From a virus (Duplodnaviria > Heunggongvirae > Uroviricota > Caudoviricetes): 64,000 bases of DNA. The stretch lies in IMG/VR virus record IMGVR_UViG_3300045988_009603; one strand, 5' to 3'. The notes beneath the pieces were generated by a model, which was given only the letters and a program-made list of their open reading frames with translations, had not been told where the DNA came from and ran no database searches. Shown here piece by piece: positions 37,518-39,178 of the stretch (its first letter is position 1; each line of letters opens with the position of its first letter). The position numbers were made by a program, and so were the translations under genes.

Positions 37518-37667
37518 ATCACTTAAGAGTCTTTCTAAGAGGGTTTTTAAGTGATGTGTAGCTCGGTCAGGTATGGTGCGGTGGTGTAAGGTGGTGTCAG
37601 GTGTAGTATGGTGCGGTGATGTGAGGTATGGGTAGTTAGTCTCAGCTACATTAAAATGAGACTTACC
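37518..37667 (+). repeat. composite repeat unit copy 1 (T-rich palindromic box, C-depleted GGT-rich tract, conserved-loop hairpin)
   Basis: ATCACTTAA...TTAAGTGAT box 37518-37555; GGT-rich tract 37564-37635; hairpin AGTCTCA-GCTACATTAAAA-TGAGACT 37631-37667. Confidence 0.6.
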
Positions 37668-37670
37668 TTT

Positions 37671-37786
37671 TTAAAAGGCCTTTTAAGAGGGTCTTTTAAT
37701 GAGGTGGGGTGGTGTAAGGTGGTGTAAGGTCTGGTTCGGTGTGTCGCGGTATGGGTGGATGGTAGTAGCCACGTTAAAAATCTACC
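37671..37786 (+). repeat. composite repeat unit copy 2
   Basis: Palindrome TTAAAAGGCCTTTTAA, box CCTTTTAAGAGGGTCTTTTAATG, GGT-rich tract, hairpin GGTAG-TAGCCACGTTAAAAAT-CTACC. Confidence 0.6.
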
Positions 37787-37793
37787 AAGTTTC

Positions 37794-37821
37794 TAAAGAG
37801 TCTTCTGTTGAGGGTTCTTTA
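37794..37821 (+). repeat. partial third copy of T-rich box directly upstream of gene 37863
   Basis: TAAAGAGTCTTCTGTTGAGGGTTCTTTA resembles TTAAGAGTCTTTCTAAGAGGGTTTTTAA. Confidence 0.45.
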
Positions 37822-37862
37822 CAAACAACTTAACAATCAACTAAAGTGTGGAGCTAAATACT

Positions 37863-38450
37863 ATGAAACTGTTAAATATCAAAATCACTGGTACTCGTCC
37901 TTTCCTGAGCCACGCTGATACGCTGTCAGACCCATTAAATCCTCTGACAAAATATCACAAGTCTCTGTCCAGTAAACGTAAAAAGACTGACGAAGATTAT
38001 GCGCTCTTAGCAGAAAGCCAACTGGTAACTTCTTGTTACTACGATGAGCAACTAGGTTTTGTTATGAACGGTGAGATGATTGAGGCTTGCATCAAGTCTG
38101 GTGCGAAACTCAACAAACTTGGTAAGGTAATTGACCGAGCCATTATGCTGACAGATGTAGTCTTCCCAATGACTATCAAGAACTGTCCAGCAAACCCACA
38201 AGAACTTGCTAAGAATCCAGACTTCATCTATGCTAAGTCTGTTAAGATTGGTACAGCACGAGTTATGAGCTACCGTCCAATCTTCCGTGACTGGTCTGTA
38301 GAGTTTGGATTGATGTTCGATGAAGAGCAAATCACCAAAGAGGAGCTTCTAATGGTTCTTGAAAATGCTGGTAACCTTTGTGGTGTAGGTGATTGGCGTC
38401 CACGCTTTGGTCGTTTTTCTGTAGAAGTTATTTCAGAAGGTAACGTTTAA
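37863..38450 (+). CDS. hypothetical protein (cassette gene 1)
   Basis: Start at ATG 37863 with GTGGAG RBS; 195 aa; no recognised motif. Confidence 0.5.
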
Positions 38451-38452
38451 TT

Positions 38453-38893
38453 ATGAATACAAAAGCATTAGCAGCAAAGTTTAGTTACGGTGACACTGTA
38501 TCACATTCTGAGATGGACACCTTCTTAGGTATTGTGAAGCCAACTTATCAAGGTGACATTGTTAAGTACGAAGATGAAATGAAGGCTTATGCGCTTACAC
38601 GTCTAAACCGACTTGAAAAGTTTATTGAAAAACTTCTTAAAGAAGAGAAGATTTATCTGGTTGCTTCAATGGGTGTTGGTTATCGTGTGGTTGAACCTAA
38701 GCATCAAGCAACTATTGCAAAACGCAAAATGTCTGGTAAGATTGGTCGTGCTTTAAAGCAAGCCACTCAAGCGATTGAGAATGTGAACACTATGGCACTT
38801 AGTCATCAAGAACGTTCACGACTGATTGAACAGCAAAATCACTTAGCTGCTATGAAAGCTAATATTAACAAGCAACGCAGAAAACCTTTCTAA
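38453..38893 (+). CDS. hypothetical protein (cassette gene 2)
   Basis: 146 aa; charged/helical, basic C-terminus; no recognised motif. Confidence 0.5.
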   Translation: MNTKALAAKFSYGDTVSHSEMDTFLGIVKPTYQGDIVKYEDEMKAYALTRLNRLEKFIEKLLKEEKIYLVASMGVGYRVVEPKHQATIAKRKMSGKIGRALKQATQAIENVNTMALSHQERSRLIEQQNHLAAMKANINKQRRKPF

Positions 38894-38904
38894 GTTGACT
38901 AGGT

Positions 38905-38927
38905 AGCCTCTTCGGAGGCTCCTTTTT
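38905..38927 (+). terminator. intrinsic terminator (AGCCTC-TTCG-GAGGCT plus T-run)
   Basis: 6 bp stem, UUCG loop, CCTTTTT tail directly after cassette gene 2. Confidence 0.6.
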
Positions 38928-39041
38928 AAAAGGTCTTTAAACAGGGTCTTTTAACAAGGCTTAGCTTGGTTAGGTATGGTAAGGTGGTGTTTGGTGTTGT
39001 AAGGTATGGGTAGTTAATCGGAGCTACATAAAAATTCGATT
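38928..39041 (+). repeat. composite repeat unit copy 3
   Basis: Box AAAAGGTCTTTAAACAGGGTCTTTTAAC, GGT-rich tract 38961-39013, hairpin AATCG-GAGCTACATAAAAATT-CGATT 39016-39041. Confidence 0.6.
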
Positions 39042-39043
39042 AC

Positions 39044-39178
39044 ATCACTTAAGAGTCTTTTAAGAGGGTTTTTAAGTGAGGTGTGGCACGGTAATGTTAG
39101 GTAGGGTCAGGTCAGGTCAGGTCAGGTGAGGTAAGGTAATGTATGGAAGGATGGCAGTAGCCTTATAAAAAATCTGCC
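39044..39178 (+). repeat. composite repeat unit copy 4, includes (GGTNA)7 tandem pentamers
   Basis: Box ATCACTTAAGAGTCTTTTAAGAGGGTTTTTAAGTGA near-identical to copy 1; GGTCA x4 + GGTGA + GGTAA x2 at 39105-39139; hairpin GGCAG-TAGCCTTATAAAAAAT-CTGCC 39153-39178. Confidence 0.6.

Follow-up and report, generated by a model that had tools for sequence, protein, structure and literature searches.

Assignment of a GGT-rich repeat locus in a Felix O1-like phage to the type II VIPR systems, with predicted guide targets in an Escherichia coli satellite element

The stretch of DNA considered in this work, hereafter the window, comprises 64,000 nucleotides (nt) of a tailed virus of the Caudoviricetes (IMG/VR record IMGVR_UViG_3300045988_009603) and belongs to a Felix O1-like phage. 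The region from position 37459 to 39178 can be assigned with high confidence to a type II VIPR (Viral Interference Programmable Repeat) locus of the SUSP1 clade, in which two guide RNAs, known as vrRNAs, precede the genes vipr and vap1, and two further vrRNAs follow them. VIPR systems combine the protein Vipr with an accessory protein, Vap, and with vrRNAs, each of which is made up of 9–16 pentamers of the form GGY/NN (Y being T or C, and N any base) and an invariable tail that in the SUSP1 clade contains a pseudoknot (10.64898/2026.04.26.720920). According to cryo-electron microscopy, one Vipr protomer sits on each repeat, the G-G-Y bases being flipped out and held while the NN dinucleotide pairs with the target, every third base of which is skipped (10.64898/2026.04.26.720927). 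Both this kind of system and its SUSP1 clade have already been described in two preprints of 2026, where 41 vrRNAs are listed (10.64898/2026.04.26.720920) and where the authors propose that the system is older than CRISPR. In E. coli, the phage of the window most likely uses VIPR to keep a parasitic satellite element silent. To what was known, the present analysis adds target predictions, an apparent repeat slippage in guide 4, and the finding of orphan guide units in vipr-less relatives.

The non-coding part of the locus consists of four units on the plus strand, arranged two and two around a gene pair, between a DNA ligase gene (36162–37301) and the gene of a small secreted protein (39271–39654). 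Each unit is composed of a leader, an array and a 34-nt tail (Table 1), and each of the four arrays is a strict in-phase series of 11 to 16 pentamers (G/T)-G-Y-N-N. A first-pass annotation, made from the letters of the window, had described them as C-depleted, GGT-rich tracts lying between 37564 and 39139, and as regards composition this was correct, since on the plus strand the arrays contain 5–9% C and 36–47% G, against 21% and 18%, respectively, in the whole window. The periodicity is also beyond chance: at least six out of ten in-phase GT dinucleotides occur at these four places only when both strands of the 64 kb are scanned, the background maximum being five. The interval given, nevertheless, clipped the feature, because the arrays begin at 37550 and the last tail ends at 39178. 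Similarly, the pentamers GGTCA (four times), GGTGA and GGTAA (twice) lie exactly at 39105–39139, as had been reported, but they are no peculiarity of the fourth copy, all four tracts being built of in-phase pentamers; and although the tracts were well described, their link to the two genes that stand between them was missed.

The constraint acting on the arrays became apparent from a comparison set of 66 unique arrays taken from 29 related phage loci. In these, the first position of the pentamer is G in 79% of cases, the second is G in 97% and the third is T or C in 99%, while the fourth and fifth are near uniform. Among related phages both the NN letters and the number of pentamers vary and the phase is retained, the distance from leader to tail always amounting to a whole number of pentamers, from 9 to 19. 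The array pattern is characteristic of selection on a periodic G-G-Y, with the other two positions carrying information or freedom. The leaders, of about 31–34 nt, fall into two sequence classes with the common core GTCTTT...AGGGT(C)TTTTAA.

As for the tails, the 20 distinct ones collected from phages and satellites align without gaps and show a 7-bp hairpin with an A-rich loop, which pairs back to the first bases of the tail to give a pseudoknot of 4 bp (variants GTAG:CTAC, GTGG:CCAC and AAGG:CCTT). Standard pairs fill 90.9% of the cells of this alignment, nine of the 11 pairs change on both sides, and values this high did not occur in any of 500 shuffles; when the partner was slid by 1–3 columns, pairing fell to 30–43% of the cells. 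Compensatory changes of this type denote a constraint on a folded single strand, and therefore the element works as RNA. The earlier proposal that the tracts act as RNA is supported by this covariation, and the tracts do lie downstream of the TTGACA-N16-TATACT promoter, which was found where it had been announced. A pseudoknot considered early on, between GTAGCT at the 5' edge of array 1 and AGCTAC in the tail loop, was dropped, since other phages do not keep the pairing. In a scan of positions 36000–41000 against Rfam, with E-values of up to 10, only chance-level matches to snoRNA and lncRNA families appeared, far below the gathering scores. Furthermore, public phage records carry no annotation at the locus beyond generic repeat, promoter and terminator features, the repeats listed in the Felix O1 genome paper (PMC3185647) do not include these arrays, and a literature search for a Felixounavirus transcriptome found none.

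The features of a type II VIPR locus are found together here: pentamer vrRNAs (16, 11, 11 and 14 repeats) with hypervariable NN letters and a tail combining hairpin and pseudoknot, a first gene whose product is a small RAMP-fold protein, and a vap gene, vap1, adjoining it. The first gene shares 98% identity with the gene next to vrRNA1 on its downstream side in SUSP1, which is vipr according to the cloning description (10.64898/2026.04.26.720920), and the second shares 99% with SUSP1 vap1, the second gene of that locus. The hallmark of vipr is a RAMP-fold protein of about 20 kDa with an RRM core, a G-loop and a thumb; the first gene product conforms to this description, and its structure model, obtained with 44 homologues, reached a predicted local distance difference test score (pLDDT) of 95. 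Moreover, the residues that hold GGY (H17, R138, D177, W178, R179, E71, M72 and C173), as well as K33 at the skipped base, are all present at the same positions as in the published list (10.64898/2026.04.26.720927); across the family alignment, H17, K33, R138 and R179 vary little or not at all. In the homologous SUSP1 system each GGY is held by one Vipr protomer (10.64898/2026.04.26.720920; 10.64898/2026.04.26.720927), so that the suggestion of a repeat serving as the site of an RNA-binding factor proved sound. In our own scan of the SUSP1 locus (L005), a single unit lay before the gene pair and three lay after it, which is the layout reported from small-RNA sequencing (10.64898/2026.04.26.720920). 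The link of Vipr to CRISPR is the RAMP fold only. Pfam gave no match for genes 1–3 (gene 1 being vipr and gene 2 vap1), and PHROGs assigned them to families of 'unknown function' only. No fold assignment was obtained for Vap1, for which a search of 5.8 billion proteins detected no homologues outside the phage group, Vipr having 520.

A satellite phage with a baseplate protein 72% identical to its SUSP1 counterpart is reported to be the common target of guides from the SUSP1 clade (10.64898/2026.04.26.720920). When the tape-measure/baseplate region of the window was compared with complete E. coli genomes, a satellite element was found in 474 out of 5426 (around 9%); PK5, E47 and 2017.18.02CC are examples of strains that carry it. 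Six variants of it (L029–L034) are islands of approximately 10–14 kb with serine recombinase genes at their borders, and their cargo includes a tape-measure gene, a baseplate gene, small hypothetical genes and sometimes HNH or Dam genes. In the best records, the satellite gene annotated as 'phage baseplate protein' attains up to 93–95% nucleotide identity to positions 52191–52748 of the window (gene 51972–52769, minus strand), whereas the satellite tape-measure protein is only 29% identical to that of the phage, a difference which suggests a recent exchange of the baseplate gene alone between satellite and helper. With tape-measure and baseplate proteins of its own, the satellite probably hijacks Felix-like virions.

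Targets were scored by replacing each GGY with one wildcard and aligning the guides without gaps to both strands, with the threshold of 80% of NN positions used in the VIPR paper. Guides 1, 2 and 3 exceed this value in satellite DNA (Table 1), and on the evidence of these matches guides 1 and 2 fit the satellite tape-measure gene in two different variants of its sequence. The same guides with the order of their NN shuffled gave at most 22, 16 and 16 matches, respectively, and skip rules of 0, 2 and 3 bases gave 13–19. When the 66 unique arrays were taken together, 50 reached at least 80% with a skip of one base, compared with 2, 5 and 2 for skips of 0, 2 and 3; all 50 matches lie inside the satellite boundaries, satellites representing about 60% of the DNA searched. 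No self-match of at least 80% exists in the window. The best one for guide 1 (20/28 NN) is at 53889–53929 on the minus strand, within the phage tape-measure gene (52769–54976, amino acids 350–363), and this site is homologous to the satellite target of the guide, where the satellite peptide reads LSQMAGKGQIMAEE. Eight NN differences at a homologous site mean that guide 1 tells self from parasite. The published targeting rule and the class of target are thus reproduced independently, from sequence alone.

Guide 4 pairs with its predicted target perfectly or near-perfectly over the first nine dinucleotides, after which the register is lost: the target offers three CAx steps and the guide holds four GGTCA pentamers (39105–39124). 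In the relatives L002, L017, L022 and L024 the run has three copies, and relatives of this kind match the same satellite site at 83–95%. In fact, once one GGTCA is removed, guide 4 scores 20/22 (91%) instead of the 18/24 of the guide as it stands. The run is most simply read as a guide segment for CA-CA-CA in which one repeat would have been gained by slippage.

For SUSP1, the evidence includes small-RNA sequencing, co-purification of Vipr and vrRNA, binding assays, repression of green fluorescent protein and cryo-electron microscopy (10.64898/2026.04.26.720920; 10.64898/2026.04.26.720927). Given the 98–99% identity of the proteins and the shared RNA anatomy, the vrRNAs of the window would be RNAs of about 100 nt that are bound by Vipr and repress the transcription of their targets. 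By homology with SUSP1, each unit would be transcribed and would mature to an RNA of this length, formed by the array and the 3' tail; one Vipr protomer per pentamer would then flip out and grip G-G-Y, giving rise to a helical filament; the exposed NN would base-pair with a single strand of duplex DNA, leaving out each third base of the target; and the bound complex would block transcription, an effect that Vap1 would strengthen. To judge from the target matches, the guides would be aimed at the satellite element in the E. coli chromosome.

Several points weigh against this assignment and the function proposed. Expression, processing and formation of the ribonucleoprotein in the window phage are extrapolated from the 98–99% identical SUSP1 system, and the two sources on VIPR are both bioRxiv preprints of 2026. 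Units 3 and 4 are enclosed between a terminator-like hairpin (38905–38930) and the next promoter (from 39198), and lying behind that hairpin they need either read-through or an unrecognised promoter to be transcribed. At the target of guide 3 a consensus scan found no sigma-70 promoter, for which reason promoter occlusion is not claimed. The NN match of guide 4 (75%) is below the 80% threshold of the paper, its target is out of wobble phase, and its exact pattern was absent from the IMG/VR viral contigs in an exact search. In addition, of the E. coli pangenome, the search for targets covered six satellite variants only.

Two other mechanisms had been put forward in the first-pass annotation. 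In one, the transcript would be a sponge whose AGGU and GGUG words, similar to Shine-Dalgarno sites, titrate 30S subunits or a host factor. The arrays do lie downstream of a good promoter and do contain such words, AAGGTGGTG and GAGGT among them, but these are not enriched: 7, 5, 3 and 6 were observed in the four arrays, compared with means of 4.2, 3.1, 1.9 and 5.9 (standard deviation about 2) when the NN letters were shuffled, so that the 5-mers remain within approximately 1.3 standard deviations of what the GGY scaffold yields. Furthermore, the letters that complete these words are precisely the NN, which are near uniform, hypervariable among phages and spell satellite sequences instead, and the constraint that does exist, G-G-Y at a period of 5 nt, is left unexplained by pairing to 16S RNA. 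A sponge can be given almost no credence, and the RNA is better regarded as a guide. The other mechanism placed the function in the DNA itself, as iterons, to which a replication origin or R-loop with a G-rich tract and a cluster of primase sites may be added. The non-template strand is indeed G-rich after the promoter, the locus lies in the replication module beside ligase and polymerase genes, and the words GGGTC and GTGTC resemble T7 primase sites. Nevertheless, the units do not repeat a single sequence, having only leader and tail in common; the near-identical direct repeats of 17–22 bp expected of iterons are not found; two of the five array positions are free in content; and the compensatory changes in the tails fit a folded single strand. 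Moreover, the same units are discrete small RNAs in SUSP1 (10.64898/2026.04.26.720920), and most of the units are missing from about half of the related phages, as would hardly be expected of an essential origin, all of which makes a DNA-level element extremely improbable.

It could also be argued that the arrays act in cis, as an operator at which a ring- or filament-forming protein would control the downstream genes in the manner of TRAP, and not as guides in trans. Such a leader would suit the location of units 1 and 2 in the 5' untranslated region of vipr and of units 3 and 4 upstream of the next gene, and a 5-nt period with a conserved triplet and two free bases resembles TRAP sites; in fact, by binding its own leader, Vipr could exert feedback control as an extra function. 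As a replacement for guides, this reading is very unlikely, since it explains neither the match of the free positions to the satellite under one skip rule nor the existence of satellite units without vipr, and since SUSP1 vrRNAs act in trans from plasmids (10.64898/2026.04.26.720920). The candidates considered (a TRAP-like site, T7-type primase sites, a tail motif similar to RfaH ops, Chi-like GGTGG words, G-quadruplexes and an antisense Rho-loading site) were set aside, as none explains a strictly conserved GGY with a period of 5 nt together with free NN letters that spell a satellite. Overall, the first-pass annotation holds for its statements on the sequence, for the RNA and for a site of an RNA-binding factor, and fails for the sponge and iteron mechanisms.

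Guide units of the VIPR type are not confined to loci that encode Vipr. Within the Ounavirinae, vipr was present in 118 of 259 records, and the other 141 are without vipr and vap. In each of the ten vipr-less loci sampled, that of Felix O1 among them, one or two guide units remain between the ligase gene and the gene after it (Table 1), with intact phasing and a GGY content of 0.69, compared with 0.77 in vipr-positive loci; seven of 11 orphan arrays match the satellite at 80% or more with the 1-nt skip. No mention of orphan guide units was found in the text of the VIPR preprint. As regards the satellites, the paper remarks that they encode vrRNAs, and this agrees with the units found in three of the variants studied here, which, being without vipr, could only use Vipr from a helper phage. 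In Felix O1 itself, a leader of the unit 1 type is joined to a type C tail. Since the leaders of units 1 and 4 (37519–37549 and 39042–39074) are near-identical, recombination between them would delete guides 1–3, vipr and vap and leave the one-unit layout of Felix O1. A tentative explanation, which we regard as possible but rather doubtful, is that the guide units are independent of vipr, either receiving Vipr in trans from a co-infecting relative or acting as decoys, and that loss and reacquisition of the cassette occur by recombination at the leaders of units 1 and 4.

When compared with known systems, the locus resembles the type II VIPR of SUSP1 in gene order, in Vipr (98%) and Vap1 (99%), in its GGY/NN arrays and tail types, and in the predicted class of satellite target. 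It differs from it in having 2+2 guide units instead of 1+3, in the NN content of the guides, in the extra GGTCA that guide 4 of the window carries relative to its predicted target, and in the phage itself, a Felixounavirus here and a Suspvirus in the case of SUSP1. With the backbone of class 1 CRISPR effectors (Cas7/Csm3/Cmr4), VIPR shares the RAMP fold, the binding of one protomer to each guide segment of constant length, the flipping of bases at regular intervals, and a conserved structured handle that caps a variable guide. The period, however, is 5 nt with three bases sequestered, whereas in CRISPR it is 6 nt with one base flipped; target pairing in VIPR is non-contiguous; and no adaptation module is known for it. 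In the window, Tandem Repeats Finder returned only repeats of short period at 34000–43000, not the direct repeats of about 25–40 nt with unique spacers that make up a CRISPR array, and the neighbouring genes had no Pfam or Cas assignment.

The TRAP sites of Bacillus trp leaders consist of 11 (G/U)AG triplets separated by 2–3 nt. The likeness lies in a triplet at a period of about 5 nt, free spacers and an oligomeric protein with one subunit per repeat, and the difference in the triplet (GGY, not (G/U)AG), in the protein (RAMP fold, not TRAP fold) and in the spacers, which in VIPR carry information. PeSL (promoter-early stem-loop) cassettes flank shuffled genes in T4-type phages, and in a comparable way the two-gene cassette described here, which some close relatives have and others lack, is bordered by repeated non-coding modules. 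Unlike those of PeSL, the flanking modules of the window would be guide RNAs, and the near-identical leaders suggest that the modules may have a role in cassette loss.

The phage that hosts the locus is a Felixounavirus, and a 4-kb query (36500–40500) is 93–96% identical to the Escherichia phages LMP34 and wV8. The sign of the GC skew changes at about 31 kb and about 43 kb, two points which bracket a rightward block of replication and nucleotide metabolism genes holding the VIPR locus, with leftward DNA around it. Sequence that matches the Felix-like window at about 95% identity, vipr included, is also present in the GenBank records GU169904.1 (Staphylococcus phage SA1) and MG065668.1 (Campylobacter phage A126), which are probably chimeric or contaminated.

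Table 1. Features of the VIPR locus in the window, predicted guide targets, and guide units without vipr (L numbers denote the phage loci and satellite variants compared; positions preceded by an L number refer to that locus)
Feature	Position	Strand	Remarks
Sigma-70-like promoter TTGACA-N16-TATACT	37459–37486	+	Consensus scan, 11/12 hexamer matches; upstream of guide 1, guide 2 and vipr, which it presumably serves
Leader, guide unit 1, TCACTTAAGAGTCTTTCTAAGAGGGTTTTTA	37519–37549	+	Kept ahead of arrays in 29 phage loci; putative processing site or 5' handle
vrRNA 1 array, 16 in-phase pentamers GGY/NN	37550–37629	+	Pentamer scan
vrRNA 1 tail, type A	37630–37663	+	Hairpin GTCTCA/TGAGAC and pseudoknot GTAG/CTAC; covariation in 20 distinct tails
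Leader, guide unit 2	37664–37697	+	
vrRNA 2 array, 11 pentamers	37698–37752	+	
vrRNA 2 tail, type B	37753–37786	+	Hairpin GGTAG/CTACC and pseudoknot GTGG/CCAC; covariation
Leader-like module without pentamer array, AAGAGTCTTCTGTTGAGGGTTCTTTAC	37787–37835	+	Read from sequence; after guide 2, just 5' of the vipr ribosome-binding site; may be what is left of a former unit, or may belong to the vipr 5' untranslated region
vipr, 195-amino-acid RAMP-fold protein	37863–38450	+	
vap1, 146-amino-acid accessory protein	38453–38893	+	99% identity to SUSP1 vap1
Terminator-like hairpin AGCCTCTTCGGAGGCT, then T run	38905–38930	+	3' of vap1; overlaps the start of the unit 3 leader
Leader, guide unit 3	38921–38952	+	
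vrRNA 3 array, 11 pentamers	38953–39007	+	
vrRNA 3 tail, type A'	39008–39041	+	Hairpin ATCGGA/TTCGAT and pseudoknot GTAG/CTAC; covariation
Leader, guide unit 4	39042–39074	+	Nearly identical to the unit 1 leader
vrRNA 4 array, 14 pentamers	39075–39144	+	Includes the GGTCA x4 run
vrRNA 4 tail, type C	39145–39178	+	Hairpin GGCAG/CTGCC and pseudoknot AAGG/CCTT; covariation
Promoter-like TTGACA-N17-TATTTT	39198–39226	+	For the next gene (39271–39654); marks the right border of the locus
Predicted target of guide 1, satellite tape-measure gene	L032 10328–10368		26/28 core NN (93%); variants L032–L034; skipped base is the wobble position
Predicted target of guide 2, same tape-measure gene, other variants	L029 14278–14303		17/18 core NN (94%); variants L029–L031; skipped base is the wobble position
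Predicted target of guide 3, intergenic	L033 11976–12001		17/18 core NN (94%); 46–71 bp upstream of the satellite baseplate gene
Predicted target of guide 4, satellite gene of 107 amino acids	L029 11023–11057		18/24 core NN (75%)
Orphan guide units, Felix O1	L003 3041–3150		
Orphan guide units, UAB_Phi87	L006 3041–3290		
Orphan guide units, other phages	L007, L009, L013, L014, L018, L020, L023, L027		
Satellite-borne vrRNA-like unit	L030 2397–2471	-	Type B tail, no vipr; strand in locus orientation
Satellite-borne vrRNA-like unit	L031 4986–5060	-	Type B tail, no vipr; strand in locus orientation
Satellite-borne vrRNA-like unit	L034 4962–5036	-	Type B tail, no vipr; strand in locus orientation

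VIPR is a form of RNA-guided DNA recognition in which a repeat scaffold holds the target in a gapped code that is read by a Cas7-like protein. The system is widespread in the relatives of Felix O1 and wV8, phages that are used for therapy and typing, while in public records the vipr and vap genes appear as 'hypothetical protein' and the guides are unannotated, no Rfam or Pfam model detecting the system. Application of the targeting rule yields concrete predicted targets for the four guides, in a satellite carried by about 9% of the complete E. coli genomes. For phage therapy, as well as for the ecology of phages and their satellites, a specific conflict between helper and parasite is thereby indicated.

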